Notes under the pieces: model-generated
Seen by the model: only the letters and a program-made list of their open reading frames with translations
Told to the model about the DNA's origin: nothing
Databases searched by the model: none
Position numbers and translations under genes: made by a program
Shown: one piece after another, positions 4,056 to 57,076 of the stretch
Layout: each line of letters begins with the position of its first letter
Position numbering within the stretch: position 1 is the stretch's first letter
DNA from: Bacilli bacterium
GTDB lineage: Bacteria > Bacillota_I > Bacilli_A > ML615J-28 > CAG-698
Assembly (NCBI GenBank): GCA_050953045.1
Contig: JBMNLY010000001.1
Location: forward strand, 74,947-138,946
Length of the DNA stretch: 64,000 nucleotides
Reading direction: 5' to 3'

Positions 4056-5030
4056 ATGAATATTTATGTAAAATCCTTTTTATATAGTTTTATAATTGCG
4101 ATATTTTTATTTATTTTTTTTATTCCTTTACTTAGAAGAATAAAATTCGGTCAAACAATCAGAAAGGAAGGGCCGAAGGATCATTACAGTAAAGCAGGAA
4201 CCCCGACAATGGGCGGAATTGTGATCATCCTAGCGACCGTAATCAGTTTTCTTTATTTAAGGTTAAAAGAAATTGAGATTGACAAACATTATATTTTGCT
4301 TTTGTTAATGCCTTTAATTCTTTACGGTATTCTAGGTTTTATTGATGATTATTTAATTGTTGTGAAAAAAAACAATCAAGGTCTTACTTCCCGAACCAAA
4401 CTCTTCTTTCAAATTATCTGGGCAGCGTTTTATTTTTATGTGTTTTTGGATAAAGGTTTAAGTTCGGTGGTAAATATTTTTGGGTGGAAAGTGGATTTAA
4501 AATGGGGCTACGGTATTTTGATTCTCTTGATGCTGATTTCCTCAAGCAATGCGGTTAATTTAAGCGACGGTTTGGATGGACTTGCAGGAGGTTTAATCAT
4601 TATTGCGCTCGGTGTGATTATTATTTTAAGCAGATATATTGAAAAAGAAGAAATTCTAATCTTTTCGCTTTGTTTACTGGGAGCGGTTCTTGCTTTCCTT
4701 TGTTATAATTTTAAACCAGCAAAAATTATTATGGGTGATACAGGATCGCTTGCCTTGGGAGCGAGTCTTGCTAATCTTTTTATTCTTTTAAAAATGGAAG
4801 TTTTGCTTTTGGTTGTCGGACTTGTTTTTATAATAGAAACTATCTCGGTAATAATTCAGGTATTCTATTTCAAAATTACAAAAGGAAAAAGAATTTTCCT
4901 GATGGCACCTTTGCATCATCATTACGAACTAAAAGGCTATAGCGAAACCGAAATTGATGCCGGCTTTTGGATTCTTGGAATTCTTTTTGGTCTTCTTGGC
5001 TTAATCCTCGGAATAACATTGTTAGGGTGA
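4056..5030 (+). CDS. mraY: Phospho-N-acetylmuramoyl-pentapeptide transferase
   Basis: 324 aa, polytopic membrane protein. Conserved MraY blocks (…GTPTMGG…, …DDxxD-like IDDYLIV…, HHHYELKG). Confidence 0.9.
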   Translation: MNIYVKSFLYSFIIAIFLFIFFIPLLRRIKFGQTIRKEGPKDHYSKAGTPTMGGIVIILATVISFLYLRLKEIEIDKHYILLLLMPLILYGILGFIDDYLIVVKKNNQGLTSRTKLFFQIIWAAFYFYVFLDKGLSSVVNIFGWKVDLKWGYGILILLMLISSSNAVNLSDGLDGLAGGLIIIALGVIIILSRYIEKEEILIFSLCLLGAVLAFLCYNFKPAKIIMGDTGSLALGASLANLFILLKMEVLLLVVGLVFIIETISVIIQVFYFKITKGKRIFLMAPLHHHYELKGYSETEIDAGFWILGILFGLLGLILGITLLG

Positions 5031-6292
5031 TAGCAATCAAATATTTATTATTAGGTTATGGAAAAAGTAATCGGTCGTTAGAAAAGTTTTTTGCTACAAA
5101 GGGGATATACTTTCAAATTTATGATGACTTTCTTTCGGAAAAAAGAATTGAGGTTGATTTTAATGGTTTCGATTGTGTTGTAAAAAGTGGGGGGATCAAA
5201 AACGACCACTGGATACTCGATATAGCCCGGAAACTTAATAAAGAAATCATTTCCGATTTGGAACTCTTTTACTTATATAATCAAGAAAAAACTTTTATTA
5301 CGGTTACCGGAACCAATGGTAAAACCACAACTGTAAATCTACTTAATTATTTACTTCCGGAATTTGATCTTGGCGGCAATGTCGGTCTACCACTATTTGA
5401 TTATTGTGATTCTAAAAAAAATATTATTATTGAAGCCTCAAGTTTTATGTTGGAATATACAAACTCCTATCGTTCAAAGATAAATGTTATTTTAAATATT
5501 GAACCCAATCATTTGGATTATCATTTACATTTTTCTGATTATCTAAATGCAAAACTGAAGTTAATAAAGAACGCTGTTTCAAATGATTATCTTGTTTATA
5601 ATGCTGATGATCCCGTATTAACAAAAGTTGTTCGTAGTTACAATCTTTATAAAATTCCTTTCTCGAAAGTAAAAAAGAATGGGATTTTTATTTCTGAAAA
5701 TAATGTTTATTATAAAGGAAAATTAGTGTTTAAACCGGTAAATTTAAAACTTCAAGGCGAGCATAATTTAGAAAATATCGCTGCCGCAATCGGTGCTGTT
5801 CTTTGTTATAATCCTCAATATCCTGATTTTTCAAGAATTAATGCCTTCAATCCTTTGGCGCATCGGCTTGAATATCTTGGTAAAATCGGAAAGATTGAAG
5901 TTTATAATGATTCAAAAGCAACGAACCTCACAGCTTTAAAAACCTCGCTTGCTACATTTAAAAACAAAAAAGTTATTTTGATTTGTGGTGGTAAAAGAAG
6001 AAGAGAAAACTATGGTACTTTAGATGATTATCTTTCTAGTTTGGATTTAGTGCTGGTAAACGGCGAAAACAAAGAGACTTTATTAGAGTATTTTCAAGGA
6101 AAAGGAATTAAATGTTATGTTTTTTTAAATCTTCAAAACCTTTTAACTGAACTAAAAACTTATCTTAAAAACCAAGACGTTTTGCTTTTTTCGCCGGGAG
6201 CAGTCAGTTATGATCAGTTTCAAAATTTTGAAGAAAGAGGGAATTATTTTAAGGATTTTATTAAAGAATTTTTAACAGAGAATAATAATTAA
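5027..6292 (+). CDS. murD: UDP-N-acetylmuramoylalanine--D-glutamate ligase
   Basis: GTG start overlaps the mraY stop. N-terminal Rossmann GYGKS and Mur-ligase P-loop VTGTNGKTTT. Confidence 0.85.
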   Translation: MIAIKYLLLGYGKSNRSLEKFFATKGIYFQIYDDFLSEKRIEVDFNGFDCVVKSGGIKNDHWILDIARKLNKEIISDLELFYLYNQEKTFITVTGTNGKTTTVNLLNYLLPEFDLGGNVGLPLFDYCDSKKNIIIEASSFMLEYTNSYRSKINVILNIEPNHLDYHLHFSDYLNAKLKLIKNAVSNDYLVYNADDPVLTKVVRSYNLYKIPFSKVKKNGIFISENNVYYKGKLVFKPVNLKLQGEHNLENIAAAIGAVLCYNPQYPDFSRINAFNPLAHRLEYLGKIGKIEVYNDSKATNLTALKTSLATFKNKKVILICGGKRRRENYGTLDDYLSSLDLVLVNGENKETLLEYFQGKGIKCYVFLNLQNLLTELKTYLKNQDVLLFSPGAVSYDQFQNFEERGNYFKDFIKEFLTENNN

Positions 6293-6988: not shown

Positions 6989-8860
6989 ATGTATTCACAT
7001 GGATTTCTTAAAGTAGCCGCCGCTTCTCACAAAACCAAACTCGGCGATTCGATGTATAATGTAAAAGAGATGCTTGAGATTTTAAAAGAAGCTAAGAAGA
7101 AAGGCGCTGCTCTAATTTGTTTTCCGGAATTATGCATTACCGGCTATTCCGTCGGTGATATGTTGTTTCAAAGATACCTTTATCTGGATTCTTTAAACGC
7201 GATTAAATATCTTCTAGATAATAATCCATTTCCCGGAGTTGTTATTTTTGGCTCCTATGTGATTATTAACGATACGCTTTATAATTGCAGTTTTGTTATT
7301 CAAAATAAAAAAATTTTAGGAATAATTCCGAAAACTTTCCTGCCCCATACCAATGAGTTTTATGAAAGCCGCTGGTTTGCTTCCGGAAACAATTTAATCA
7401 AAGATTTAAAGAATATTAAATTTTTGGGTCAAAATGTCCCTTTTGGAAAACTGCTTTTTGAAAATGAAAATCGTGATGTCATCTTCGGTGCCGAAATCTG
7501 CGGCGATGTTTGGGCTCCAACTTCACCGAACGAAAAATTGTTTGCGAATGGGGCGTTGATTGTATTAAATTCCAGCGCTTCCCCTGCTCATATTGGTAAG
7601 AAAGAAAAAAGACATTTGTTGACCCAAAGCACAACGATGAAGTTCAACTCTGCTTATGTCTATGTTTCCAATAATGCGAGTGAATCTACAAGCGAAGTTG
7701 TTTTTAGTTCGCATTTGATTATTGCTGAAGACGGAAATATCATCAGCGAATACGATCGCATTACCTTTGAAAACAATATTATCTACGGCGATATCGATAT
7801 AAAAAAACTTCATTTCTTACGTCGTAATAATAGTTATTATAAACAAACCCAAGCCCTAGCTCGTGATGTTGATTTCCAATATGTAAAGTTTGAACTAGAA
7901 GAAAACGCGGAATATGCGTTTGAGGAACTGCCGGAAAGATTACCCTTTGTTCCGAAAAAACGAGCTGATTTGGAACGAATCACGATGATTCAAGGCGCAA
8001 GTATTCGAAAAAGACTTGATTATGTGGGAACAGAAAAGGTCGTCCTTGGTGTCAGTGGCGGTTTGGATTCCACGTTGGCTTTGCTTTCTTTAGTTCATGC
8101 TTATGATGAAGCCGAAATTGATCGAAAAAATATTATTGCTGTAACAATGCCTTCAGCAGAAACCAGCAAACGGACTTATGAGAATGCGAAAGCGTTAATC
8201 GAGAAGCTGAAATGCGCCTTTAAAGAAATCAGAATTGATTTAGAAGTACGAAGGCAGTTAGAATTAATCAATCATTCAACAGAAAAAGATACAACTTATG
8301 AAAATATTCAGGCAAGAATTCGGACTACTACGCTGATGAATCTTGCGAACCAAGAAAAAGCCGTGATGATTGGAACCACGGATATGAGCGAAATTGCTCT
8401 TGGCTGGTCGACATTCGGCGGTGATCAAACCGGAATGTACGGAATCAATGCCGGACTTCCGAAAACTGTCGTCCGTGAGGTTGTAAAATACTATCAAGAA
8501 ATCTTCCCGGATGTAAAAGATATAATTGACGATATTCTAAAGACGCCTATTTCTCCAGAACTTACCGGTAGTAACCAAAAAACAGAAGACCTAATCGGCA
8601 AATTTGAAATCAACGATTTTATTCTCTATCACTTCTTGGTCAACGGTGATGATTTTGAACGTGTCAGTTATTTACTAACTAAAGCATTCGGTTTAAACGG
8701 TAATGAAGCCCGTGAATATGTAAATAATTTTTCGAATCGTTTCTTTACCCAACAGTATAAACGTTTATCGATGCCGGAAGGAGTTAAGATAATGGCTGTT
8801 TCACTTTCTCCAAGAAGCGAATTAAAACTTAGTGGAGACCATTATCCACCTAAAATCTAA
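6989..8860 (+). CDS. nadE: Glutamine-dependent NAD+ synthetase (N-terminal nitrilase domain plus NAD synthetase domain)
   Basis: 623 aa. N-terminal CN-hydrolase region. PP-loop SGGLDS at the start of the synthetase domain. Confidence 0.9.
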   Translation: MYSHGFLKVAAASHKTKLGDSMYNVKEMLEILKEAKKKGAALICFPELCITGYSVGDMLFQRYLYLDSLNAIKYLLDNNPFPGVVIFGSYVIINDTLYNCSFVIQNKKILGIIPKTFLPHTNEFYESRWFASGNNLIKDLKNIKFLGQNVPFGKLLFENENRDVIFGAEICGDVWAPTSPNEKLFANGALIVLNSSASPAHIGKKEKRHLLTQSTTMKFNSAYVYVSNNASESTSEVVFSSHLIIAEDGNIISEYDRITFENNIIYGDIDIKKLHFLRRNNSYYKQTQALARDVDFQYVKFELEENAEYAFEELPERLPFVPKKRADLERITMIQGASIRKRLDYVGTEKVVLGVSGGLDSTLALLSLVHAYDEAEIDRKNIIAVTMPSAETSKRTYENAKALIEKLKCAFKEIRIDLEVRRQLELINHSTEKDTTYENIQARIRTTTLMNLANQEKAVMIGTTDMSEIALGWSTFGGDQTGMYGINAGLPKTVVREVVKYYQEIFPDVKDIIDDILKTPISPELTGSNQKTEDLIGKFEINDFILYHFLVNGDDFERVSYLLTKAFGLNGNEAREYVNNFSNRFFTQQYKRLSMPEGVKIMAVSLSPRSELKLSGDHYPPKI

Positions 8861-8874
8861 GCGACTGATATTTT

Positions 8875-8898
8875 GCCAAGCAATGCTTGGCTTTTTTT
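8875..8898 (+). terminator. Rho-independent terminator
   Basis: GCCAAGC-AAT-GCTTGGC followed by TTTTTTT. Confidence 0.6.
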
Positions 8899-9125
8899 AT
8901 TTAGATAGTATCATTATAAATTTTTGTTGTTACTATCGAAATTGTTCGAATAAACAGAAAGTTTGCGTTAAGTTTGTTTTCGACAAATTTTTCAAGAACT
9001 CGCTGACATTTTTCTTCAAAAAAAAAATATTCTCTCGTCACGCTTCTACAAATTCTTCAATTCTTTTTTCGTATAATGATTGCAGTTATATGTAGGTGAA
9101 GTACGTCTTTTGTATCATTTCAAAA

Positions 9126-9155
9126 AACAGCTTTTGGGGGAGAGCTGTTTTTTTA
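9126..9155 (+). terminator. Second rho-independent terminator upstream of the giant gene's promoter
   Basis: AACAGCTTT...AGAGCTGTT stem (one G-U pair) followed by TTTTTTT. Confidence 0.45.
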
Positions 9156-9222
9156 TTAAATCTCGTTACTTAGCATATTTTTATGATATAATATACACAC
9201 AACACATTCAAAGGAGACGGAG

Positions 9223-12200
9223 ATGGATTTCGATTTTGACTCAATAATACAGTACTTTAATATAGGAATCATTACGATTTTAGTTAGTGGAGCTCTCCTT
9301 GGCTTTCTGAGAGGCTTATTTAAATCCGGTTATAATTTATTGGTTTTTGTTGCTTTGTTATTAACTGGTTGGTTTTTAAGCCCAATTATCGTCAGGAATC
9401 TTATGGATTTTGATATATCGAAATATTATTCAATTAATTTCCGAGGAATCGATATTACAAGCATTAATGCAACAATTCCCGGGATTATTGATAATCTTGT
9501 TCCGCAATTTGCGGGTTTGGTAACGCCGGGCTCAAGCGCTTATTTGCTTGTTCAAGCGCTGATTTTTATGGTTTTAAGAATTGTGGTTATGATTCTTTGG
9601 CTGATTTTAATGGGAACGGTTTTTAAATTTATCTTTTGGATTATCTATTTAATCATTAAACCCAAAGCAAAGTCGAAAAACGGAAAGAAAGTTGGAAAAG
9701 GGCTTGTTTCCCGTTTTGGCGGCTTAGCGGTCGGGACTGTTCATGCTTTGCTGGTTGTCTTTCTCTTCAGCATTGCCCTTTCCGGTTTAACTTCAATTGG
9801 TAGTTCTCTGGTTGAGATGTTACCGGAAACAGAACCGGAAGTACAAGAAACCTATCTTTTGGTTTTAAACGAAGAGGCAGCGACCTTACAAGCACAAATA
9901 CCTGAATTAGAGGCTTACGAAGAAGTGTTTAGTTTTATGGCTTCCTATCGGGAGACATTTTCAGGTAAAATTTCTTCCTTCATTAAGATTGGTAAAGATC
10001 CGGCCGATGAATATTTATTTGATGAATTGTTTTCCTTAAAAGTTCGAAGTCATAAGGTAAAACTAAAATCAGAATTACAGACGGCCTTAAGAGCTTATGC
10101 GTTGATTGTAGACAATATTGAAGGGGAAATCACTATAGATAGTATCGCTTCCTTGGATAGAGAGATTCTTGAAGATATTTTTGAAGAAATCTCGAAGTTG
10201 AAACTAATTCAAATCGCCGTTCCGATTGGTGTGGAATATGCTTATCAAAGCGATTTGTTGAACTTTTTAACTGAAGAAGAATTTGCGGAAGCGTATGAAG
10301 ATTTGTTAGAAATTGATTTTAGTGAAGAAATTAAAAATTTAGGAAATGCCTTTATTACCGGGCTTGAACTCGGCCTCTTAAATGGTGAAAATAAGCTTGA
10401 TTTTTATTTAAAACTTGACGGCGAGAAAGTCGAAGATTTATTTACTGCTTTAGGCGAACTTAAGTCGGTTGATACGGTTGCGCCGATTGGCCTTGGTTTT
10501 TTATTGAAACAAATAAAAAGTAATTTAGAACCGCTCGGTATTGATTCCGCTACTTTAGATTTAAAAGATATCACCTGGAGTTCAGAACTGGCAAACCTCG
10601 GCAAAATTTTTAATGCTTTTGTTGCCTTAGGAATTTCTTATGAAAATGAAAAGTTGACTCTTAGTGATATTACCGACGATGGAATCAATGCCTTTAGTAT
10701 CGCTGTTTTTAATTCTAAATTCCTAACCAATAACAATAATGCCTTAGCAAAGGTTATTATTAACATCTTGCCGGACGATTATCGTTCTGTTCTTACAATT
10801 GAAAATTTTGAAAAAGAAGATCTTAGTTCCTTATTGTCCTTAGCAAAAATTATGGCTGATGCTGGGCTTTTAGAAGACGATCTAAATGTTCCTACTTTGC
10901 TTTCTGAGGGTAATATTGATAAAATTGCTGATGCCATCAGCAAATCCAAATTGCTCAGTGCCAATGTCAGCAATCTTTTAAAACTCCTTCTTGACCAGAT
11001 GGATTTAGGTTTTGAAATCTCGGAGTCCAGTTTGGAAATGAACTGGTACGGCGAGCCCGGCAAAACCGAAATCAAGGCTTTATTTACAGCTGCGCGTACG
11101 CTTTATGATTTAGGTCTTTCCGGAGATGATTTCTTAACCAATCTCAATCCGGAATCGATCGATGATCTGACAGAAAAGGTTACTGATTCCGATGTTCTGA
11201 TGAGCAATATCGGAAATATGATAGATTATTTGTTTGTAGAAGGAGACTTTTTAGGAGATCTCACAATCGATACCAGCTCTGTTGCTGATATAGATTGGAA
11301 GAGCGACGAAGGCCGTGCTGAATTTAGAAACATTATGCGTGCTGCCAGCACGATTGTAGAAGCTAATTTACACAACAATCCTGAATTTGAAACGCTCAGT
11401 GATGGCACGGAAGATGTTAACGAAGACGGCGTTGTTGATGAAAAAGATAATTTGATCGGAAGGCTTGCGGAAAGCTTATCTTCATCAATTCTGATTAAAA
11501 ACAATCTCAGTAATATCATCTCTCAAGCGGTTCCCGAGCAAACAGGCGATCTTAAGATCATATTTTTTGATGATCCTGATGATTGGACTGAACTTGAAAT
11601 TGAATCAATGCTGCTTTCCATGAAGATTATCACGAAGAAGGAAAAACTTCCCGACGATTTATTTAACCTAACTGATGCTGAACTAGATATAATTTTAAGT
11701 TCGCTTTTGGTCAGCAGATCAATTGTTCAGAATTTAGAAGAAATGACAGAACCCGAGGGTAAACTCTACGGTTTAATAATTATAGAAAATGTTAACGAAG
11801 AAGATTGGTATGACCGTTTTGATGGCGAAGATAGAATTTATGACGGCGAACTAAGACGGCTTTTCAATTCCGGAAAAATCTTGCTCGGAGAAAATCCTGA
11901 TTTTGATGATTCCAATAACCTCGTTTCTTTAAACCGCATTCTTGAAATAGAAGATGAGGAAATGGATAAACTTGTTCAAAGCACTGTTTTAAGAGATTCA
12001 ATTGCGAACAAATTAATTGAAAAGAGCGAAGAAGATGCCGACTTAGAAGTGAACCTGGCAATGGGGGATCCTTCTTGGACGAATGAAATCAAAAGATTAA
12101 TTAAAGCAACCAAGATTCTGCTCGGCGATGATGCCGATTTGGATAATATTAACCTAGATATTAATACTGTTAAGTCTCTAAATGATAGCGATATTGATGT

Positions 12201-14451
12201 GGTAATAGCTTCCATTATAATCAGTGATACGATTATCAAAAAGCTTGTTGATATTGGAGCAGATGCAGAAGGTAGTTTGGTTGTTCGTTATGAAAAGAAT
12301 GACCCTGCTTGGCATGGAAGTCAAGAAAACCCAGGAGAATTGAAAAGATTTCTGACTGCAGTCAATATCTTGCTTGATGAGGATGATGATCTGAACAATC
12401 CTGATGTAATCAGTATTGATCGGATTACAGAGTTGACAGAAGAAGAACTTGATACTTTAGGTAATTCTTATCTTATTGTTGATACGGCGGTAGAACATCT
12501 AGAAGAAATGACGGAACCCGAAGGCTCTCTTCATCAAACGCTATATTTACCGGAAATCACAAAAGATGAATATTATGGATCAACCGGTGAATTCAAAAAC
12601 TTCATGCTTGCCATCCAACACATTCTTAAAGAAAATACCGCTCCGGACGAGAAGTTAGAAGATTTAAAACACATTTCAATATCCTCATTAACCGGAGATA
12701 ACCAAAAAATAGTCTTGGCGTCTAGAGTTGTAAAAGAAACGATAATTCGTAACATTGAGATTGAAGCCGATAAACAAGCAGTTATTAAAATTGCTCCCGA
12801 ACTTAAACGAGACGGCCCGGATTATCAAGAAGGAATTTGGGACAATGAACTTCCCAATCTTCTGGATGCAATTAGCATCATCTTAGGTGAGGATGCTATT
12901 CTTGATGAAATTAATGTTTCCGCAAATGATTTTCTCGCTTTAAGCGATTCGGAAATTGAAATCATTTTAGATTCAAGGATTGTCAGTCATACTGCTGCTA
13001 AAACAATTGAAGAAAAAAGTAAAGATGACGCTTCCTTAATCAAATTACCTCAGGACCTTGATCCTAAGCAACCGGAATATGATGAATCTCTTTGGTATGG
13101 AGCTGAAGGCGAACTTGCGAAAGCGTTAAAAGCTTTGCGTGAATTAGAATTTTCAGATTTTAACAGCGACATTAAGATAACTGCTCTGTTTGAAGAAGCA
13201 AGAGGTACAACAGAAGAAGTCATTTTAGCATCTCGAGTTGTAGAAGCATCTGTTATCAACAAGATTGAAACCGAAGCAGCTCTTGGCGGTATGTTATACG
13301 GTACTTTAATAATTCCTGAAGGCGTCGTATGGAGTAAATCCGATAATGACAAAGGTGAACTTAGACGCTTCTTACTGGCGATAGAGCTTGTTCTTGGTGG
13401 CGAAGAGTTTGAAAATGCAACTTTCAAAGTCGAAAAATTCTTCGGAGAAGATCAAGAAACCTTACTAGATTCACAAATTGTAGAAGCATCTGTTATCAAC
13501 AAGATTGAAACCGAAGCAGCTCTCGGCGGTATGTTATACGGTACTTTAATTATTCCTGAAGGTGTTGTTTGGAGTAGAACAGAAAACGATGAAGGTGAAC
13601 TGAGACGCTTCTTACTAGCAATAGAGCTTGTTCTTGATGGTGGCGAGTTTGAGTATGCAACTTTTGAAGTTGATAAATTCCTCGGCGAAGACCAAGAAAC
13701 CTTACTTGCATCCCAAATCGTAGAAGCTTCCGCTATCTCCTACATCCGGAAATCCGATAAACTTATTAAACCTGATCCGGATGATGTGGCTACTTATTAT
13801 TATTTTGAAGATAATGTTTTGGTTTGGGATGGCGAAGACGGCGAACTCAGACGCTTCTTGAATGGGATTAAGACATTACTTGGAACTTCAACTTTTGCTG
13901 ATTTCGAGTTTAAGATGGATAATCTCTTAAATGTTGATTTTGTTAGTGCCTTAGAATCCCGCGTTTTAGAAGCCACTTTGACTGATATGGTAATGGGCTT
14001 GATTGACGGCGGCGTCTTGGCTGGTTTGATTAAAGAACCCGACAATGGTTATCAATGGTATCATCATGCGACAAGTACCGATCCTCTTGTTGGCGAAATC
14101 CGTAGTGGCGAGTTTAAACTCGACAATAATCCTGATTTCAGCCAGTACAGTGATCTTTCCGGATTCTTAAAAGCTATTCAAGCAATGAATGCGGCCGGAT
14201 TAAGCTACGATAATATTGATAAAGATACGATCGCGGAAGCGGATTCTGAGGAACTCGCAGATGCCTTCTGTGATTATTCGCGGGTAATCGGCGGTTCAAT
14301 CGCTAAGATGCTTAACTATGTGTTAAAAGATGTCGTGCATCCGTTAAAACCGGAATTTGATGACGAGGACATTAATTATCAAGAGAAAGGTAAAGTAATT
14401 TTAGCTCTTGAAACCTTTAAGTATTTTGTAAAGATTCAATTGGGAGAATAG
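9223..14451 (+). CDS. Giant (1742 aa) membrane protein: N-terminal CvpA-like 4-TM domain fused to a very acidic, degenerate-repeat region
   Basis: The first roughly 190 aa have 4 TM helices and the CvpA-type start (ILVSGALLGFLRGLFKSGYNLLVFVALLLTGWFLSP). The remaining roughly 1550 aa are D/E-rich with recurring modules (…GEL[KR]RFL.A…LL(G/D)(E/D)D.D.D…, …SR(V/I)V…I…IE…, LEEMTEPEG twice). Extended -10 (TGATATAAT) at 9184-9192 and RBS AGGAGA at 9211-9216. Confidence 0.7.
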   Translation: MDFDFDSIIQYFNIGIITILVSGALLGFLRGLFKSGYNLLVFVALLLTGWFLSPIIVRNLMDFDISKYYSINFRGIDITSINATIPGIIDNLVPQFAGLVTPGSSAYLLVQALIFMVLRIVVMILWLILMGTVFKFIFWIIYLIIKPKAKSKNGKKVGKGLVSRFGGLAVGTVHALLVVFLFSIALSGLTSIGSSLVEMLPETEPEVQETYLLVLNEEAATLQAQIPELEAYEEVFSFMASYRETFSGKISSFIKIGKDPADEYLFDELFSLKVRSHKVKLKSELQTALRAYALIVDNIEGEITIDSIASLDREILEDIFEEISKLKLIQIAVPIGVEYAYQSDLLNFLTEEEFAEAYEDLLEIDFSEEIKNLGNAFITGLELGLLNGENKLDFYLKLDGEKVEDLFTALGELKSVDTVAPIGLGFLLKQIKSNLEPLGIDSATLDLKDITWSSELANLGKIFNAFVALGISYENEKLTLSDITDDGINAFSIAVFNSKFLTNNNNALAKVIINILPDDYRSVLTIENFEKEDLSSLLSLAKIMADAGLLEDDLNVPTLLSEGNIDKIADAISKSKLLSANVSNLLKLLLDQMDLGFEISESSLEMNWYGEPGKTEIKALFTAARTLYDLGLSGDDFLTNLNPESIDDLTEKVTDSDVLMSNIGNMIDYLFVEGDFLGDLTIDTSSVADIDWKSDEGRAEFRNIMRAASTIVEANLHNNPEFETLSDGTEDVNEDGVVDEKDNLIGRLAESLSSSILIKNNLSNIISQAVPEQTGDLKIIFFDDPDDWTELEIESMLLSMKIITKKEKLPDDLFNLTDAELDIILSSLLVSRSIVQNLEEMTEPEGKLYGLIIIENVNEEDWYDRFDGEDRIYDGELRRLFNSGKILLGENPDFDDSNNLVSLNRILEIEDEEMDKLVQSTVLRDSIANKLIEKSEEDADLEVNLAMGDPSWTNEIKRLIKATKILLGDDADLDNINLDINTVKSLNDSDIDVVIASIIISDTIIKKLVDIGADAEGSLVVRYEKNDPAWHGSQENPGELKRFLTAVNILLDEDDDLNNPDVISIDRITELTEEELDTLGNSYLIVDTAVEHLEEMTEPEGSLHQTLYLPEITKDEYYGSTGEFKNFMLAIQHILKENTAPDEKLEDLKHISISSLTGDNQKIVLASRVVKETIIRNIEIEADKQAVIKIAPELKRDGPDYQEGIWDNELPNLLDAISIILGEDAILDEINVSANDFLALSDSEIEIILDSRIVSHTAAKTIEEKSKDDASLIKLPQDLDPKQPEYDESLWYGAEGELAKALKALRELEFSDFNSDIKITALFEEARGTTEEVILASRVVEASVINKIETEAALGGMLYGTLIIPEGVVWSKSDNDKGELRRFLLAIELVLGGEEFENATFKVEKFFGEDQETLLDSQIVEASVINKIETEAALGGMLYGTLIIPEGVVWSRTENDEGELRRFLLAIELVLDGGEFEYATFEVDKFLGEDQETLLASQIVEASAISYIRKSDKLIKPDPDDVATYYYFEDNVLVWDGEDGELRRFLNGIKTLLGTSTFADFEFKMDNLLNVDFVSALESRVLEATLTDMVMGLIDGGVLAGLIKEPDNGYQWYHHATSTDPLVGEIRSGEFKLDNNPDFSQYSDLSGFLKAIQAMNAAGLSYDNIDKDTIAEADSEELADAFCDYSRVIGGSIAKMLNYVLKDVVHPLKPEFDDEDINYQEKGKVILALETFKYFVKIQLGE
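13237..13760 (+). repeat. Near-identical 240-bp (80-aa) tandem repeats inside the giant gene (two full units plus a partial third)
   Basis: The unit starting ATTGTAGAAGCATCTGTTATCAACAAGATTGAAACCGAAGCAGCTCT recurs at 13237, 13477 and 13717 (period 240) with about 90% nucleotide identity. The protein repeat is IVEASVINKIETEAALGGMLYGTLIIPEGVVWS…GELRRFLLAIELVL…. Confidence 0.8.
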
Positions 14452-14463
14452 AGAGGTGAAGAG

Positions 14464-14787
14464 ATGAAACTGATTATTGCGATAGTTTCGAATGATGACA
14501 GTACATCATTGATGAAAGAGTTGGTAAAATGCAAATATTTTGTAACGAAGTTAGCTTCAAGCGGCGGTTTTCTTAAAAAAGGCAATACAACGCTGATGAT
14601 CGGAGCGAAAGCAGAAGATGTTGAGCCGATTATCAAAATCATTACTGATTTTTCGCGAACCAGAAACGAATTTGTTCCGAGTTCGATAATTAGCGAATAC
14701 GGAATAATTCAATCGACTCCGATTGAAGTTACAGTCGGCGGAGCCACGCTCTTCATTATTGATGTTGAAGACTTTAGAAAGATTTAA
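14464..14787 (+). CDS. darA: Cyclic-di-AMP receptor protein DarA/PstA (PII-like, DUF970/YaaQ family)
   Basis: 107 aa. MKLIIAIVSNDDSTSLMKELVKCKYFVTKLASSGGFLKKGNTTLMIGA…VGGATLFIIDVEDF aligns along its length with B. subtilis YaaQ/DarA as recalled (MKLIVAIVQDQDS…ATKLATTGGFLRAGNTTFLCG…VGGATVFVMPVD). Confidence 0.8.
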   Translation: MKLIIAIVSNDDSTSLMKELVKCKYFVTKLASSGGFLKKGNTTLMIGAKAEDVEPIIKIITDFSRTRNEFVPSSIISEYGIIQSTPIEVTVGGATLFIIDVEDFRKI

Positions 14788-14795
14788 AAGAAAAA

Positions 14796-14818
14796 GGGGT
14801 CGGTTTGCCGATCCCTTT
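14796..14818. terminator. Bidirectional hairpin terminator between convergent darA and the anti-sigma gene
   Basis: GGGGTCGG-TTTG-CCGATCCC (one G-U pair) with A-run upstream and T-run downstream. Confidence 0.5.
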
Positions 14819-14819
14819 A

Positions 14820-15746
14820 TCATTCTTGGATGTTAAAAATATAGATTTCATTATCAAGGTTCACTTCATATATTATGGAATCATTCTGTTTGGTTGCGGA
14901 AATGAACATCACTCGAATTGGATTTAGGTTGGTTCCTATGTTCTGACCCGAACTAAATAGTCCGTAGGTGATGCTGTAACCACCCTGATTATTTTCTTTA
15001 ATCAAGTAGGTTGTTTTTCTGATAATATCAGTTATTTCGATATCAGTAGCCGATGTTATGATCTTGGTATTGCCTGTTAAAACGCCGTCCTGATAAGTTT
15101 TGATTTCCATGTCAGTTTCTTTACGAATTTCAATATAGGAGTTTTCTCCTGTAGACATTTTCAGAGTCAACCGATTAGCTTCCAAATATCCAGTTATTGG
15201 GTAGGTAGCAATGCTATCGGTGATTTCAATTTCATACTCGATCCTCTCTTTATTTGTTGTTCTTAAAGAAATTGATAAGTCGTTTGTTTGGTATGTTTTT
15301 TGATATTCATTTTTTGGATTTGTTTCTTGAAACTCGGGCGAATTAAAATAATTTATCGCGACTGTTTTCAAATAAAGATCCAGATACTTAATTTCTTCTA
15401 AAAGAAATGAGTCGACACCTTCGCTTTCTGAAACAATCTCCCTATCTTCCAAGAACTGGTAGAGAGTTAAAGAGGGAAGCAGTAAAGAGGGCGCTCCTTG
15501 AAGAGAATTTGAGCTCTCCGGAGTATTGGTATTGTCATAGGAGGTAGGTAGTATTATTAAAGCAAAAAGCAGGATAAAAACGGAGGCTAATCTGAAAACA
15601 GGAATTAACCAAGGTTTTCTTTTTGGTTTGACTGGAATATCTTCTGAAATTTGTGCTTGCTTTAAAATAGCCTTTAAATCAAGGTCATGAATTTCTTTGT
15701 CTATCTCATCTTGGATTATTGAAAAGATCTTTTTCCGCATTCCCAT
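14820..15746 (-). CDS. Putative anti-sigma factor (single-pass membrane protein, extracytoplasmic C-terminal domain)
   Basis: Lies immediately 3' of the ECF sigma gene on the minus strand. Cytoplasmic N-terminus, TM segment (LIPVFRLASVFILLFALIILP), roughly 240-aa C-terminal domain. Confidence 0.5.
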   Translation of the reverse strand: MGMRKKIFSIIQDEIDKEIHDLDLKAILKQAQISEDIPVKPKRKPWLIPVFRLASVFILLFALIILPTSYDNTNTPESSNSLQGAPSLLLPSLTLYQFLEDREIVSESEGVDSFLLEEIKYLDLYLKTVAINYFNSPEFQETNPKNEYQKTYQTNDLSISLRTTNKERIEYEIEITDSIATYPITGYLEANRLTLKMSTGENSYIEIRKETDMEIKTYQDGVLTGNTKIITSATDIEITDIIRKTTYLIKENNQGGYSITYGLFSSGQNIGTNLNPIRVMFISATKQNDSIIYEVNLDNEIYIFNIQE

Positions 15747-16268
15747 TCACCTCTCTTTAAAATAGGATTTAACTTTCTTTAAGGCTTTTTGGTAAAGCCA
15801 GAGGACAGTTCCGAGCGGAAGGTCGAGGATTTGGGCAATCTCCCGATGTTTAAAACGTTGGATTGCATAAAGCATAAAGATGCTTCTTTCTTTAGCGTTT
15901 AAAAGTTCTAAGACTTCCGATAGAATGGCGCTCTTTATGCCTTCTGGAGCGACTGTTTCCACAATCTCTTCGGGAGCGATTATTTCTTCTCGTTTTCTTT
16001 TGCGGTAATAATCGATTGCTTTGTTTCTTGCAATCGTAAGCAACCAAGTTTTGAAATTACTTCCGGGCTTATATGTGCTGATTTTCTCGAGCATCGTAAG
16101 ATATGTTTCTTGCATAATATCATGAGCAAGACTGCGGTCTTTAATGATTGAAAGAATTAAGGCATAGACCGCATGCTTTGTATCATGATAGATTAAGGCA
16201 AAAGTTCCTTCGTCTTTGTTTTTTAAAGCCTCGATGTGGAAATCGTAGTTCATCATTAAAGCCTCCAA
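15747..16268 (-). CDS. ECF-type RNA polymerase sigma factor (sigma-70 regions 2 and 4)
   Basis: 173 aa. Region 2 (…IMQETYLTMLEKISTY…) and a region 4 HTH (…REIAQILDLPLGTVLWLYQKALKKV…). Confidence 0.8.
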   Translation of the reverse strand: MEALMMNYDFHIEALKNKDEGTFALIYHDTKHAVYALILSIIKDRSLAHDIMQETYLTMLEKISTYKPGSNFKTWLLTIARNKAIDYYRKRKREEIIAPEEIVETVAPEGIKSAILSEVLELLNAKERSIFMLYAIQRFKHREIAQILDLPLGTVLWLYQKALKKVKSYFKER

Positions 16269-16465
16269 ATCATTTCAATTATAACATTTGAACGGAGGCA
16301 AGGCAATCAGTCTGAGCGGTTTTCATTATGTAAACGAATAAAAGTTGTTTTTTATTGGTGAAAAAGCTAGAAGCAATCGGAAATATTCTCTTTATTTTAA
16401 AAACCGGAAAAATATTTTCTACTTTGCATATACTAGATATGGATCCAAAGGAAAATTATGATATT

Positions 16466-17653
16466 TTGTTATGTTACAATACATTTGAGACCAAACCTTG
16501 TATAAATAACAAAAGTGATTTATACTCTCTAATGAAAGAAGATTCACCACATGATTCTTCACGAGAGGAGTATAAATCACATGGCTATTATATCACATAA
16601 GTTTCATGATATCAAAACAAAATTTCATGCTGTCTCTACATATCGTACCGGTCGTTATTCTGTTTATCACATTTGCCTGAAATACCATATCTCTAAGGCC
16701 TCTTTAATGCGCTGGAATAAAGCATTTGATGGTACTATTGAATCTCTTAAAGAGAAAAGTCGTAGACCACACACACCTCATCCTAGTATCCATACGGAAA
16801 CAGAAATATCTAAGATCCTTAGTTTGATTAAACGTAATTCTAATATCGGTCTGACTGAACTCTATACTAAACTCAGACAGCAAATAGGCTATTCTAGGCA
16901 TTATTGCAGCTTATATCGTGTTTTGATTAGATTAGGTTATTACGTTAATAAGTCTAAGATAAGAAAGAAATACAAGCCCAAAAAATATCACACACCAGAG
17001 AAACTTGGTGAAAAGTTTCAAATTGATGTTAAGTACGTTCCGACAGAATGTAAAGCCGATCCCAGAGACGATAATCGTTATTATCAATATACTGCAATAG
17101 ATGAAGCTTCCAGACAACGCTTCATGTATATATACAAAGAGCGTTCTTCTTATAGCTCAGTTGATTTTCTACGTAAAGCAATTGCTTTCTTTGGTTATGT
17201 TCCAAGAATTATTCAAACTGATAATGGCTTGGAATTTAGGCATTTTGGTGAAACAAATAGAATTCATCCTTTTGATTTAGGGTGTCAAAAACTCGGAATT
17301 ATACATAAAACCATTAAACCAAGAACTCCCAGACATAACGGAAAGGTAGAAAGAAGTCATCGAACTGATAATGAACGTTTTTACTCAAATCTAAAATTCT
17401 ATAGTTATGAAGATCTTCAGAATCAAATGAAAAGATATGTTTATAGATCTAACCGGATAGGGATGACACCCTTAAAGTTTAAAACTCCGATAGAAAAACG
17501 TAATGAACTCATGGAATCGAATATGGTAAATTGTTTATGTTTCGTTTGATTTCAAAATTGCCCATTATGCTAAGGGGGACACATTCCCCCTTAAACCCCT
17601 TTGGTTTATCTTCTTTTATTCTTTTTTGGTCTCAAATCATTTACAATCATACA
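16466..17653 (+). mobile_element. IS element copy 1 (1188 bp, single-ORF DDE transposase; IS481/rve-like; family undetermined)
   Basis: Boundaries come from comparison with the identical copy at 44152..45339. Imperfect terminal inverted repeats TGTTATGTTACAATACATTTGAGACCAAA / TGTATGATTGTAAATGATTTGAGACCAAA. Flanked by a 24-25-bp direct repeat GATCCAAAGGAAAATTATGATATT(T) at 16442-16465 and 17654-17678. Confidence 0.8.
16551..17549 (+). CDS. DDE transposase (N-terminal HTH plus rve integrase core)
   Basis: 332 aa. rve-core signatures QTDNGLEF and HNGKVERSHRT. True start may be the downstream ATG (MAIISHKF…). Confidence 0.85.
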   Translation: MILHERSINHMAIISHKFHDIKTKFHAVSTYRTGRYSVYHICLKYHISKASLMRWNKAFDGTIESLKEKSRRPHTPHPSIHTETEISKILSLIKRNSNIGLTELYTKLRQQIGYSRHYCSLYRVLIRLGYYVNKSKIRKKYKPKKYHTPEKLGEKFQIDVKYVPTECKADPRDDNRYYQYTAIDEASRQRFMYIYKERSSYSSVDFLRKAIAFFGYVPRIIQTDNGLEFRHFGETNRIHPFDLGCQKLGIIHKTIKPRTPRHNGKVERSHRTDNERFYSNLKFYSYEDLQNQMKRYVYRSNRIGMTPLKFKTPIEKRNELMESNMVNCLCFV

Positions 17654-17728: not shown

Positions 17729-17802
17729 GGCTCCATAGCCAAGTGGTAAGGCAACGGTCTGCAACACCGTGAGCACCAGTTCAAATCTGGTTGGAGCCTC
17801 CA
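17729..17802 (+). tRNA. tRNA-Cys (anticodon GCA)
   Basis: Cloverleaf: acceptor GGCTCCA/TGGAGCC, 3-bp D stem, anticodon stem ACGGT/ACCGT with loop CTGCAAC, T arm ACCAG-TTCAAAT-CTGGT, encoded CCA. Extended -10 (TGTTATAAT) at 17703-17711 just upstream. Confidence 0.8.
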
Positions 17803-28899: not shown

Positions 28900-29098
28900 A
28901 AAAAATTGCATAACACAATTAGTTTAGAGGAAGCGGTGTAGATGAGTACAGCTTGGAGGAGACATCCAGTGAAGGGTTGGAAAGGCAACCACCGCCGAAC
29001 GGGTAACGTAGGTATACGTTAGTCGTGGGGATTTAGGGAATACCTAAGTCACTCCTACTTTATTACAAAGTAGAGGCGCTAACTTCAAAATTATTATA
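28900..29098 (+). promoter_or_regulatory. Lysine riboswitch-like (L-box) leader RNA
   Basis: Ordered matches to recalled L-box cores: AGAGGAAGCGG…GUAGAUGAGUA (P1/P2 loop-E), GGUUGGAAAGGCAACCACCGCCGAACGGGU (the CGCCGAAG junction), an AACGUAGGUAUACGUU hairpin, GGGGAUUUAGGGAAUACCUAAGUCAC (the GGGGAAUACC…CUGUCAC region), a CCUACUUU-AUUAC-AAAGUAGAGG hairpin, and a 3' P1 strand. An intrinsic terminator follows. Confidence 0.55.
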
Positions 29099-29109: not shown

Positions 29110-29133
29110 GGCGTCTTGTGTGACGCTTTTTTT
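29110..29133 (+). terminator. Riboswitch expression-platform terminator
   Basis: GGCGTC-TTGTGT-GACGC followed by TTTTTTT, 30 nt upstream of the transporter RBS. Confidence 0.65.
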
Positions 29134-29163
29134 GTTTTTCTAAGACAAAAAGGAGAGAAAAAA

Positions 29164-29985
29164 ATGAAAAAGGTTTTAATTTTAACAGTTTTGTTATTAG
29201 TCTTTGTACTTGTGGGCTGTAACGACAAAGAAAGAAATTTCGATATTCCTCGTGAGGAACAATTTATTGTCGGCTTAGAAGCCAATTATCAACCCTTTAA
29301 TTGGACGGAAGATTTTTCAAGTCCCTTTAACCATCCGATCAATAATTTTTCTGGTAAATATGCTGACGGATACGATGTTCAAATCGCAAGAGCTGTTGCA
29401 GCTAGTCTAGGAAAAGTTTTGGTAATTGAAAAATTGGATTGGGATGCTTTAATTCCTTCCCTTGAAGCAAAGAAGATTGATGCAATTATTGCCGGTATGA
29501 GTCCGACTGAAGACCGGAAACAATCGGTTAACTTTACGGAAGAATACTACAAAAGCAAACATGTTGTCTTAGTCCTGGCTGACGGTGAATATACGAATGC
29601 GAAAAGCTTGAATGATTTTGCTGGAGCAACAATCGTCAGTCAACAAGGAACAATCTATGACGATTTGGTTCCGCAGCTTGTCGGTGCTACTCATGGAACA
29701 CCTTTAAAATCAGTTCCTGATATCTTAACCGGTATGCTCGGCGGAAGAATTGACGGAACCATCTTAGAGCTTCCTGTTGCTTTAGGTATCACTGCAAGCA
29801 ATCCGGAATTCAAGTATGTGGAATTGGATCCTGGTTTTGAAGTATCCGAAACCGATGTTGTTGTTTCGATTGCAGTTCGTTTGGAAGAAACCGAATTGGT
29901 TGAGGCCATCAATAAAATCTTGGAAGGAATCAGCGAGGACGTCCGTCTGAAACTAATGGAAGATGCAGTGGGTAGAGCTGAATGA
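29164..29985 (+). CDS. Amino-acid ABC transporter substrate-binding lipoprotein (family 3 SBP); putative lysine-binding from riboswitch context
   Basis: ATG after AAGGAGAG. Lipoprotein signal peptide ending in LVGC. Polar amino-acid SBP fold. Confidence 0.8.
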   Translation: MKKVLILTVLLLVFVLVGCNDKERNFDIPREEQFIVGLEANYQPFNWTEDFSSPFNHPINNFSGKYADGYDVQIARAVAASLGKVLVIEKLDWDALIPSLEAKKIDAIIAGMSPTEDRKQSVNFTEEYYKSKHVVLVLADGEYTNAKSLNDFAGATIVSQQGTIYDDLVPQLVGATHGTPLKSVPDILTGMLGGRIDGTILELPVALGITASNPEFKYVELDPGFEVSETDVVVSIAVRLEETELVEAINKILEGISEDVRLKLMEDAVGRAE

Positions 29986-49389: not shown

Positions 49390-49464
49390 TGGAGCAGGTA
49401 ACGGGAATCGAACCCGCATCTTAGCCATGGCAAGGCCACATAATAGCCGTTATACTATACCTGC
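49390..49464 (-). tRNA. tRNA-Gly (anticodon GCC)
   Basis: Reverse complement folds as GCAGGTA…TACCTGC-T-CCA with anticodon loop TTGCCAT and T loop TTCGATT. Confidence 0.7.
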
Positions 49465-55745: not shown

Positions 55746-56333
55746 GTGGAAATGTTGAAATATTTAAAAATTAATTATCAAACCATAATTTTAATACTTG
55801 CCTTAATTGTGCTCGGAATTTTTTGTATTATGCTTAAGGGCGAAAATTTCATTGAAATCTTTTCCTATCTAGCTGCGGGAATCTTAATGCTCGTAGGTAT
55901 TTCAATGATTGTCTTTTCTATCCGTTATCATGATTATTTGCAGGGCGGTAGATTCTTGGATAGGTCCGTCGGTTATTTTACTTACGGAACCGTCTTACTT
56001 GCTTTTGCTCTGTTAATTATTATCTACCCTGAATATTTAGTGCGGATCATTATCGGAATTTCTTTAATAATTTTTCCGACTATCCGCTTAATTCAAGCCG
56101 AAGACAAAAAAAGATTTTTACGTTATAATTTTTGGAAATTCTTAATCGGAATTATTTTTATTATTGCCGTGGATGTTATTCTAGAAATTTTATTTGATTT
56201 TCTTGGAATTGCTTTTATTGCTGGCGCCATCTTTTTAATCGTTATGCTTGTTAGAAACTATAATAATAAAGAAGAACCGAATTTATTTTCAAAATACATT
56301 GTTTATATTATTAAACAACAAAATAAGGAGTAA
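55746..56333 (+). CDS. HdeD/DUF308-like membrane protein
   Basis: 195 aa with repeated short TM hairpins (GILMLVGISMIVFSI…, GIAFIAGAIFLIVMLV). Confidence 0.45.
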   Translation: MEMLKYLKINYQTIILILALIVLGIFCIMLKGENFIEIFSYLAAGILMLVGISMIVFSIRYHDYLQGGRFLDRSVGYFTYGTVLLAFALLIIIYPEYLVRIIIGISLIIFPTIRLIQAEDKKRFLRYNFWKFLIGIIFIIAVDVILEILFDFLGIAFIAGAIFLIVMLVRNYNNKEEPNLFSKYIVYIIKQQNKE

Positions 56334-56335
56334 GT

Positions 56336-57076
56336 ATGGGAAAAATAGACTTGGCGATTATTATCATAATGCTGCTTTTTGTGCTTTTTGGCTTTATAAA
56401 GGGTTTTATGAAACAAATACTTTCCGTAGCCAATTGGCTTTTAAGTTTAATTGGTTCTTTTCTGTTCGTTAAACCTTTTTCAGCATTACTATCAAAAACA
56501 GCAATCGCAACTTCAATTAATGGAAAAGTTGCAAATTGGATTGCAACAAAAGGTGCGACTTTCAATGAGATGATTGAACCCGGACGCATCAAAGAACAAA
56601 TTGCTCAGGGGATATCTGAACTAGGGCTTCCAAAGTTTATTGCGGAGGCGATCGCAAGTGGGATTAATATTGGCGGTGCCGAAGGCGATATGACGCTTGC
56701 GGAAGTATTAGCGCCCTCAATCGGAAGCATTATTTTGACCGTTGTTAGCTTTATTATGCTGTTTATTCTCTTGATGATTATCTTAAAAATCATCTTTAAT
56801 CTCTTGAACAATGTCTTTGATGAAGGTATTTTAGGTGCAGTCAATAGACTCTTGGGTGGCGTCTTGGGTTTAATCAAAGGCGGCGTTTTGGTTTCGCTTG
56901 TAATGTTGTTACTTTCAACAATAAGCGGAATCATCCCTGCCCTAAACAATTTTTTGGTTGCCGATCTGGATTCAGGAATAGGCATCGGAAAATTCTTTTA
57001 CGAAAACAATCCATTACTGGTTTTAGTTAAAGGCTCATTTAATTTTAAAGACATATTTGCAAAGATATTTAATTAG
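56336..57076 (+). CDS. cvpA: CvpA-family membrane protein (stand-alone)
   Basis: N-terminus …IIIIMLLFVLFGFIKGFMKQILSVANWLLSLIGSFLF… is the CvpA signature, parallel to the N-terminus of the 9223 gene. Confidence 0.75.
   Translation: MGKIDLAIIIIMLLFVLFGFIKGFMKQILSVANWLLSLIGSFLFVKPFSALLSKTAIATSINGKVANWIATKGATFNEMIEPGRIKEQIAQGISELGLPKFIAEAIASGINIGGAEGDMTLAEVLAPSIGSIILTVVSFIMLFILLMIILKIIFNLLNNVFDEGILGAVNRLLGGVLGLIKGGVLVSLVMLLLSTISGIIPALNNFLVADLDSGIGIGKFFYENNPLLVLVKGSFNFKDIFAKIFN

Follow-up and report, generated by a model that had tools for sequence, protein, structure and literature searches.

A giant CvpA-type membrane protein with an acidic modular tail, encoded beside a darA-like gene in a Bacilli bacterium

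Results

In a stretch of 64,000 nucleotides from a Bacilli bacterium (assembly GCA_050953045.1, contig JBMNLY010000001.1, positions 74,947 to 138,946; hereafter the window), we found that a gene on the forward strand at 9223-14451 encodes a real membrane protein of 1,742 residues (194 kDa). Its N-terminus is homologous to CvpA, the rest of the chain is built from acidic helical modules, and a gene resembling darA/pstA follows directly. The same fusion recurs in a large, nameless protein family in which the CvpA-like part is present in every complete member examined. We consider it somewhat better than an even bet, at roughly 55%, that the CvpA-type module holds out a long helical rod, acidic and modular, which extends into the cell wall or across it and serves the envelope as a structural part or scaffold.

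The giant gene and its reading frame

The coding sequence, placed at these coordinates in an earlier interpretation made from the letters of this DNA (the sequence-only reading), is an uninterrupted open reading frame (ORF) that begins with ATG and runs for 5.2 kb without an internal stop codon. The ORF call is accompanied by its composition and by collinear homologs in at least 10 metagenome-assembled genomes (MAGs), and a ribosome-binding site (RBS), AAAGGAG at 9210-9216 on the forward strand, was read from the sequence 6 nt 5' of the ATG. The GC content of the window is about 36%.

We considered whether so long an ORF might be an assembly artefact or a decaying pseudogene. In favour of this is a near-identical public contig (L016; JGI 3300053716, Ga0534105_01395), in which the C3 run at 9381-9383 (+), within the codons of S53-P54, aligns with a C4 run (CCCC versus CCC in the window), splitting the gene into products called as 63 aa and 1,682 aa. 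This frameshift falls after the second transmembrane helix (TM2) and accounts for a database protein (P0001) that begins at Met61; the extra C may reflect true variation or an error in sequencing. The frame of the window restores S53-P54 and the TM1-TM2 region, invariant in close homologs and common to all homologs, from which it follows that the gene is normally intact. Misassembled repeats had been a worry of the sequence-only reading, and we found a single repeat within the gene at the DNA level (Tandem Repeats Finder and a direct-repeat search), consisting of two 240-nt copies that are 84-86% identical, which makes repeat collapse in the assembly unlikely. With the absence of stop codons and with full-length, collinear homologs in many independent assemblies, an artefact or pseudogene is hardly credible.

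The N-terminal CvpA-type membrane domain

Residues 1-200 (9223-9822, +) make up a divergent CvpA-family membrane domain, as judged from hhalign, hydropathy and loop charges. Hydrophobic helices were placed by hydropathy at about aa 13-28, 38-57, 106-145 and 165-191, and the domain carries the motif GFLRGLFKS after TM1, the basic loop KPKAKSKNGKKVGKGLVSR (aa 146-164) and SRFGG before TM4. The sequence-only reading had called this N-terminus canonical; the homology to CvpA stood, the word canonical did not. In a Pfam search, aa 1-200/205 matched Colicin_V (PF02674) at 18.8-19.0 bits (E ~0.002) and the whole protein at 11.9 bits, under the gathering threshold of 29.3 bits. Colicin_V was nonetheless the top Pfam family, though sub-threshold, in 11 of 14 family N-termini (best member E 6.1e-5), and NCBIfam gave no match for the giant protein.

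Being sub-threshold in Pfam, the homology is visible solely by profile-profile comparison. A profile of 14 family N-termini aligned by hhalign with the single stand-alone CvpA of the window at 82% probability (E 1e-5), and 101 family N-termini aligned at 98.5% probability (E 3.3e-15, residues 12-201 versus 4-208) with a profile of true CvpA proteins (~30 homologs of the same stand-alone CvpA, each PF02674-positive and no shorter than 200 aa). The latter alignment takes in all four helices and the long second loop. By these profile comparisons the N-terminus is a true but divergent CvpA domain. The stand-alone cvpA, already pointed out by the sequence-only reading, lies at 56336-57076 (246 aa; Colicin_V, 75.7 bits), and because the genome also retains this ordinary CvpA, the giant protein represents a paralogous, specialised branch. 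The stand-alone gene directly follows a gene for a DUF308 membrane protein (55746-57076 for the pair), and its product has a loop of ~70 aa between TM2 and TM3, as in the giant protein.

Several residues of the anchor are near-invariant across the family (G27, G31, F33, K34, W50, R164, G167), with G27 invariant and G31 and G167 nearly so, and such conservation suggests a function beyond anchoring. Published work on CvpA reports conserved glycines and a conserved Asp. The residue before R164 may correspond to that Asp position, an alignment-based guess; it is Ser in the giant protein and Asn in the true CvpA of the window, not Asp.

The acidic modular C-terminal domain

After residue 200 the protein continues for ~1,540 aa with 20.6% D+E and 8.5% K+R, a net charge of -187 and an isoelectric point (pI) of 4.17, compared with 11.8% D+E and 11.3% K+R in the 52 other ORFs of the window. 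An acidic repeat domain of about this length had been recognised by the sequence-only reading, which also termed it hyper-acidic and polyanionic. That description did not hold: the longest D/E run is 5 residues and the mean entropy of 40-aa windows is 3.6 bits, a normal complexity. The acidity is dispersed, and we therefore rejected a polyanion or low-complexity tract and describe an acidic folded domain.

Thirteen canonical modules of 75-90 aa each (aa 570-1666; 10930-14220, +) were identified with a hidden Markov model (HMM) seeded from a duplicated 80-aa unit and iterated over homologs, and they were modelled by AlphaFold2 with a predicted local distance difference test (pLDDT) score of 85.1. 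An HMM built without the window sequence recovered all 13 modules (E 1e-10 to 1e-27), and 0 of 200 composition-matched shuffles of the domain fell below 1e-3. The module consensus consists of a helix, D.ILASR(I/V)VE.S(I/V)I..IE, followed by a structured loop, G.L..L.IP....W, a second helix, GEL(R/K)RFL.AI..LLG, and an acidic linker. Two motifs listed by the sequence-only reading, GEL[KR]RFL (4 copies) and LEEMTEPEG (2 copies), proved to be pieces of this module, and its estimate of 90-100 aa for the repeat was too long. The 240-nt (80-aa) tandem duplication of a module, at 13214-13693 on the forward strand (Tandem Repeats Finder score 749; direct-repeat family D1), is recent.

The canonical modules are preceded by an acidic linker after TM4 (aa 201-228; 9823-9906, +), probably flexible judging from a modelled pLDDT below 50 for residues 202-228, and by a mostly helical membrane-proximal region (aa 229-569; 9907-10929, +; pLDDT 75-94). 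Self-comparison of this region by hhalign at an 85-aa offset gave 97.5% probability (E 8.5e-12), revealing divergent modules with a periodicity of ~85 aa, and its similarity to the main module is weak (E 0.03). At the other end is a C-terminal cap (aa 1667-1742; 14221-14448, +) with a partial module, matched by the HMM at 1686-1721 and helical in the second structure model. From the periodic membrane-proximal region, the 13 canonical modules and the cap, it follows that the whole tail is modular, with roughly 17 units.

A single loop between modules 2 and 3, DVNEDGVVDEKD (aa 731-742; 11413-11448, +), matches a dockerin/EF-hand-like Ca2+-loop motif. The regular expression used, D.[ND].[DN]G.[IVLM][DN]..[DE], was found in 11 of 147 long family proteins and in 0 shuffled controls, and the loop is kept in close homologs. 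Dockerins have paired 12-residue loops of the type D-x-N-x-D-G-x-(I/V)-D-x-x-D; in the giant protein Pfam Dockerin gave no match and a second Ca2+-type loop was not found. The loop resembles those of dockerins and EF-hands, but the protein does not belong to either group. Beyond the weak Colicin_V match, Pfam and NCBIfam found nothing in the giant protein, and no catalytic or recognisable binding domain was seen with Pfam.

Structure models and fold searches

Two AlphaFold2 models were made, one of residues 1-820 (15 aligned sequences; mean pLDDT 80.6; predicted template modelling score, pTM, 0.62) and one of residues 740-1742 (11 aligned sequences; mean pLDDT 85.1; pTM 0.55). The combination of high pLDDT and modest pTM suggests modules that are well defined in the models and a long-range arrangement that is uncertain. 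The repeats, for which the sequence-only reading had proposed structure prediction, were drawn as confident helical modules, and neither fold nor sequence searches connected them with a solved structure. The best Foldseek match against the PDB had an E of 0.16 and involved generic solenoids, a comparison with HEAT/ARM-type alpha-solenoids showed no significant fold similarity to solved solenoids, and the module profile found no match better than E 0.23 among PDB sequences.

A large family with an obligate fusion

Word-indexed protein searches gave 15 and 5 matches, and the exhaustive module-profile search gave a far larger family: at least 451 cluster representatives (clusters at 50% identity) at E <=1e-3, and 309 at E <=1e-10. 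Proteins of the family reach 3,623 aa and up to 32 matched stretches. A CvpA-like N-terminus was present in 129 of 159 family sequences, and the other 30 begin inside the array and are truncated. All N-terminally complete repeat-bearing proteins thus carry the CvpA-like anchor (129/129) and no other N-terminus was seen. We conclude that the fusion is obligate, and we read the anchor and array as parts that would function as one unit. A search for the same fusion in other genomes, as the sequence-only reading had advised, bears on its claim of an undescribed architecture: none of the described families matches, and the architecture is not confined to this genome. That reading had missed both this family and the conserved gene pair described below.

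The array grows and shrinks through tandem module duplication. N-terminally complete members span 1,035-3,623 aa and the number of modules in homologs ranges from 0-2 to 32, with short forms of 650-1,050 aa consisting of the anchor and the membrane-proximal region with 0-2 canonical modules. No Pfam domain was found in the 15 relatives from the word-indexed search, and none had an informative name (two were labelled 'hypothetical protein'); a cluster look-up of 10 distant members likewise returned no names.

Homolog-bearing records include Acholeplasmatales bacterium DTU067, whose gene order agrees with that of the window on either side of the homolog, as well as Tenericutes bacterium ADurb.BinA124, Acholeplasmataceae, several 'Bacilli bacterium' MAGs and a Coprobacillus MAG. 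Apparent split genes in three loci (L006, L008, L011) were rejected as such, since the second ORF is a short-form paralog with its own CvpA-like N-terminus. Loci L006 and L008 each hold a 1,136-aa form and, beyond four intervening genes, a short-form paralog of 722-725 aa; the short form of L008 has a complete N-terminus by HMM and precedes darA, a similar short form stands before darA in L006, and the second ORF of L011 runs off the contig end.

Tandem paralogs were also observed in a distant subfamily, with products of 2,878 and 1,156 aa at 4986-18321 of L012 (GCA_942493185.1, OW818673.1) and of 3,623 and 1,308 aa at 5043-20931 of L013, each with its own CvpA-like anchor. In both loci a divergently transcribed gene for a trypsin-like protease lies upstream; of the two, the L012 copy was translated, and it shows a signal peptide of the lipoprotein type (LTGC). 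Such a neighbour recalls the fusion of a CvpA-like part and a protease in MarP.

Pairing with a darA/pstA-like gene

Directly downstream, at 14464-14787 on the forward strand, is a darA/pstA-like gene of 107 aa for a PII-type receptor of cyclic di-AMP (c-di-AMP). It begins 12 nt past the stop codon of the giant gene and has its own RBS, GAGGTGA, and the two genes are probably co-transcribed. The product matches PF06153 full-length at 118 bits (cut-off 27) and the NCBIfam DarA model (NF058593) at 118.4 bits, under the 140-bit equivalog cut-off. These matches make the product a putative DarA/PstA-type receptor of c-di-AMP.

The locus search among relatives used the 9 closest sequences. A darA gene lies 12-90 nt downstream of the CvpA-like gene both in the window and in a further 10 loci whose neighbours otherwise differ (L001, L003-L008, L017, L018, and as a remnant in L009). 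The homologs paired in this way include ones that are 28-35% identical with unrelated flanks, and short forms without a canonical module. In L009 the last 29 codons of darA are left (2610-2696), fused in frame to the end of a short-form ORF. The pairing was absent from L002, L010, L012-L015 and L019 and from the more distant subfamilies, and it is conserved within one clade. No literature linking DarA/PstA to CvpA was found in our search.

Predicted topology and location

Loop charges were averaged over 104 aligned family N-termini. The N-terminal tail has means of 0.1 K+R and 1.4 D+E, loop 1 has 2.6 and 0.0, loop 2 (~50 aa) has 1.5 and 5.8, loop 3 has 7.9 and 1.0, and the stretch after TM4 has 0.4 and 2.4, respectively. 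Under the positive-inside rule, this pattern places both ends of the membrane domain outside, and with them the acidic domain, whose side of the membrane the sequence-only reading had left to topology prediction. A four-helix topology with the C-terminus out fits the hydropathy and charge pattern of the 104 sequences as well as published predictions for CvpA, in which the C-terminal tail faces outward, and is a prediction throughout. MarP offers a parallel: it combines four TM helices at the N-terminus with a protease domain for which a periplasmic location is predicted, after earlier work on that domain (PMC4992679).

The C-terminal domain contains 1 Cys in 1,542 residues, compared with 0.87% in the other ORFs of the window (P = 2e-5), and the family-wide figure is 0.19%. 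Cys depletion, the dockerin-like Ca2+ loop and the low pI fit an exported domain of a Gram-positive bacterium, and the gene for a lipoprotein-type trypsin-like protease that adjoins family genes in another subfamily was also counted as a signature of exported proteins. The repeat array is likely to lie outside the cytoplasmic membrane, as far as charge and composition can tell.

Two genes at 4056-6292 of the window, mraY (298 bits) and murD (320 bits), score above their (equivalog) cut-offs, and the organism therefore makes a peptidoglycan wall. We rejected a wall-less host on these two genes, though the closest named relatives are labelled Acholeplasmatales or Tenericutes.

Upstream region and neighbouring genes

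Upstream of the giant gene are a nadD-like gene and nadE. The two upstream terminators described by the sequence-only reading were both recovered as a hairpin with a T-run. An intrinsic terminator follows nadE at 8875-8898 (+), with the stem GCCAAGC/GCTTGGC and a T-run (terminator scan; fold -11 kcal/mol, z -2.8). The second hairpin, AAAAAACAGCTTTTGGGGGAGAGCTGTTTTTTT at 9122-9154 (+), has flanking A6 and T7 runs and a fold energy of -15.2 kcal/mol (z -4.45) that was matched by 0 of 200 shuffles. Its 33 nt are identical in L001 (region 7850-7930), upstream of a 54%-identical homolog, and a TATAAT at 9072-9077 precedes it by ~45 nt. This hairpin may terminate transcription in both directions, or it may form the 3' end of a leader or small RNA of ~75 nt; Rfam gave no credible match in the upstream intergenic region.

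The strong promoter claimed by the sequence-only reading was reduced to an extended -10 promoter-like motif, TGATATAAT at 9184-9192 (+), read by eye. The equivalent place in L001 is occupied by TGTTATAAT, and a consensus scan for two-hexamer promoters listed no promoter at 9184-9192. A promoter at this position is a weak suggestion from the motif.

The two-gene unit is closed by a terminator hairpin at 14793-14818 (+; terminator scan, fold -19 kcal/mol, z -4.15), which is shared with a convergent gene at 14820-15746 on the reverse strand. That gene (308 aa) has no family match and possibly encodes an anti-sigma factor; it stands beside a gene for an extracytoplasmic function (ECF) sigma factor at 15747-16268 (-), and an rve-type transposase gene follows at 16551-17549 (+). 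The block 14820-17549 separates darA from tRNA and pyruvate kinase genes, and since pyruvate kinase directly follows darA in the syntenic loci L001 and L017, the block looks like an insertion. Elsewhere in the window we observed a lysine riboswitch at 28917-29089 (87 bits), upstream of an ORF at 29116-29985, and tRNA genes at 17729-17799 (+) and 49393-49464 (-).

Discussion

The explanation that we favour takes the first 200 residues as a divergent CvpA-family domain with four membrane helices and both ends facing outward. TM4, which comes after a loop with eight Lys/Arg, would act as a signal-anchor and place the ~1,540 remaining residues outside the cytoplasmic membrane. The exported part would begin with a short, flexible, acidic linker and continue as ~17 alpha-helical modules (roughly four divergent, 13 canonical and the cap). 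Because the organism makes peptidoglycan, the array would be expected to extend across the zone of the wall as an elongated rod, with the CvpA module as its tether. Its most likely role would be structural, as an envelope spacer, scaffold or surface fibre; the array may also bind divalent cations, and it may couple the envelope to the membrane activity of the CvpA module. The sequence-only reading had suggested a cell-envelope organiser or a cation-binding scaffold. Placement in the envelope fits the predicted topology and the role of organiser is at most inferred, while the sole direct hint of cation binding is the dockerin/EF-hand-like loop.

Several points weigh against a wall-spanning structural rod. 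Its topology is drawn from charge bias and from predictions made for other CvpA proteins, and its shape from low pTM and modular matches. The alignments behind both AlphaFold2 models are shallow (11-15 sequences), and the model of residues 1-820 draws residues 5-62 as one continuous helix, implausible as a TM1-TM2 hairpin, so that the membrane part of the model is imperfect. There is one Ca2+-type motif only and it is restricted to a subclade. DarA, the conserved partner, is cytoplasmic and has no obvious fit with an extracellular structural role.

We think it unlikely that the array is instead a surface adhesin or fibre reaching beyond the wall to bind polymers, particles or cells, with the CvpA-like domain merely a convenient anchor that stands in for a signal peptide plus sortase or lipid anchor. 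The same topology evidence would serve such a protein, and so would the widely varying number of modules and the one recent duplication, which are typical of surface proteins, the tandem paralogs of some genomes and the dockerin-like loop. A fusion that is obligate and keeps its motifs speaks against a passive anchor: the anchor was never exchanged in the complete members, whereas adhesin repeat families usually have several anchor types, and its near-invariant residues (G27, G31, F33, K34, W50, R164 and G167) point to a role beyond anchoring. An adhesin would also lack any binding domain recognisable with Pfam, and it would leave the conserved darA pairing unexplained. That pairing, which extends to homologs 28-35% identical, speaks for a different arrangement, in which the acidic array is cytoplasmic and forms a membrane-tethered scaffold working with the c-di-AMP receptor DarA; cytoplasmic proteins of low-GC Bacillota are commonly acidic too. 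We regard this as quite improbable. The charge pattern argues against it, since the loop with ~8 K+R would then be outside and the acidic loops inside, breaking the positive-inside rule across 104 sequences, and it is at odds with the predicted topology of CvpA. Cys depletion and the dockerin-like loop point outward, and the pairing is limited to one clade.

A long shot would bring the two genes together with the array outside. The CvpA-like module and its long, wall-spanning tether could form an envelope sensor linked to c-di-AMP signalling, in which displacement or tension between wall and membrane (from turgor or wall damage) would travel along the helical-bundle chain to reach the four-helix membrane module. 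The output would be coupled to c-di-AMP through a co-transcribed DarA binding the basic cytoplasmic loop. CvpA has been likened to mechanosensitive channels in published work. If true, such a sensor would give DarA a membrane target and CvpA a mechanism.

Whichever of these holds, the finding touches two questions, the activity of CvpA and the regulatory targets of DarA. CvpA is conserved across bacterial phyla and is needed by enteric pathogens for bile resistance and gut colonisation, and its functional end has been proposed to be the C-terminal tail, which faces outward. In the present family nature has run the experiment of lengthening that tail to an array of 1,000-3,400 residues, and the array is never parted from the membrane module; this suggests that the CvpA module works jointly with something in the envelope; the family may in this way give a handle on the role of CvpA. 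Pairing with darA/pstA provides a testable lead for a c-di-AMP receptor with poorly defined targets, and genetics may be possible, since a complete genome of 2.0 Mb (GCA_942493185.1) is available for at least one carrier. The at least 451 nameless clusters, whose module has no Pfam or NCBIfam model, represent an annotation gap in gut and digester bacteria of the Acholeplasmatales and Erysipelotrichales types.

Comparison with known systems

The module is without a described relative, and the architecture is genuinely undescribed and widespread; literature searches on CvpA in Acholeplasma, Mollicutes or Erysipelotrichia found nothing relevant. Rod domains of talin, vinculin and alpha-catenin, which are eukaryotic cytoskeletal proteins, scored far under any homology threshold with one bundle covered, and the analogy is one of form only. 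In form the giant protein also resembles giant helical-bundle envelope proteins such as Ebh of Staphylococcus aureus, in which small helical bundles make up a very long chain, tethered to the membrane, in or through the Gram-positive wall. Ebh has no sequence or Pfam relationship to the giant protein, and its helical-bundle modules differ from those described here, which consist of two long helices and long structured loops with a conserved Trp. The giant protein also differs in the kind of its anchor, which sits at the opposite end.

The darA-like gene resembles known DarA/PstA genes over all 107 aa (PF06153, 118 bits) and differs in falling under the NCBIfam DarA equivalog cut-off (118.4 versus 140 bits). 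In Bacillus subtilis darA lies near tmk and holB, not behind a cvpA-like gene.

For MarP (Rv3671c) of Mycobacterium tuberculosis, too, the membrane part falls in the Colicin_V/CvpA-like class, and a literature search linking Rv3671c to colicin V found nothing relevant. As in our prediction for the giant protein, four N-terminal membrane helices carry a domain outside the membrane (predicted periplasmic in MarP; PMC4992679). The C-terminal domain of MarP is a 200-aa chymotrypsin-fold protease, whereas the giant protein has a repeat array with no detectable catalytic domain, and in L012 and L013 the trypsin-like lipoprotein is encoded by a separate neighbouring gene.

CvpA itself (E. coli CvpA and the copy at 56336-57076 of the window) shares with the giant protein the same four-helix domain by profile-profile homology over its whole length, including G-x-x-x-G-F-x-(R/K)-G after TM1 and R-x-x-G-G before TM4, and a variable C-terminal tail that is predicted to face outward. 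The tail is ~1,540 residues in the giant protein and tens of residues in CvpA, the domain falls under the Pfam cut-off, and the loop before TM4 is strongly basic. CvpA proteins are ~160-250 aa with a short tail, and the giant protein has 1,742 aa. On the profile evidence it belongs to the CvpA superfamily by homology, not by Pfam threshold or by size.

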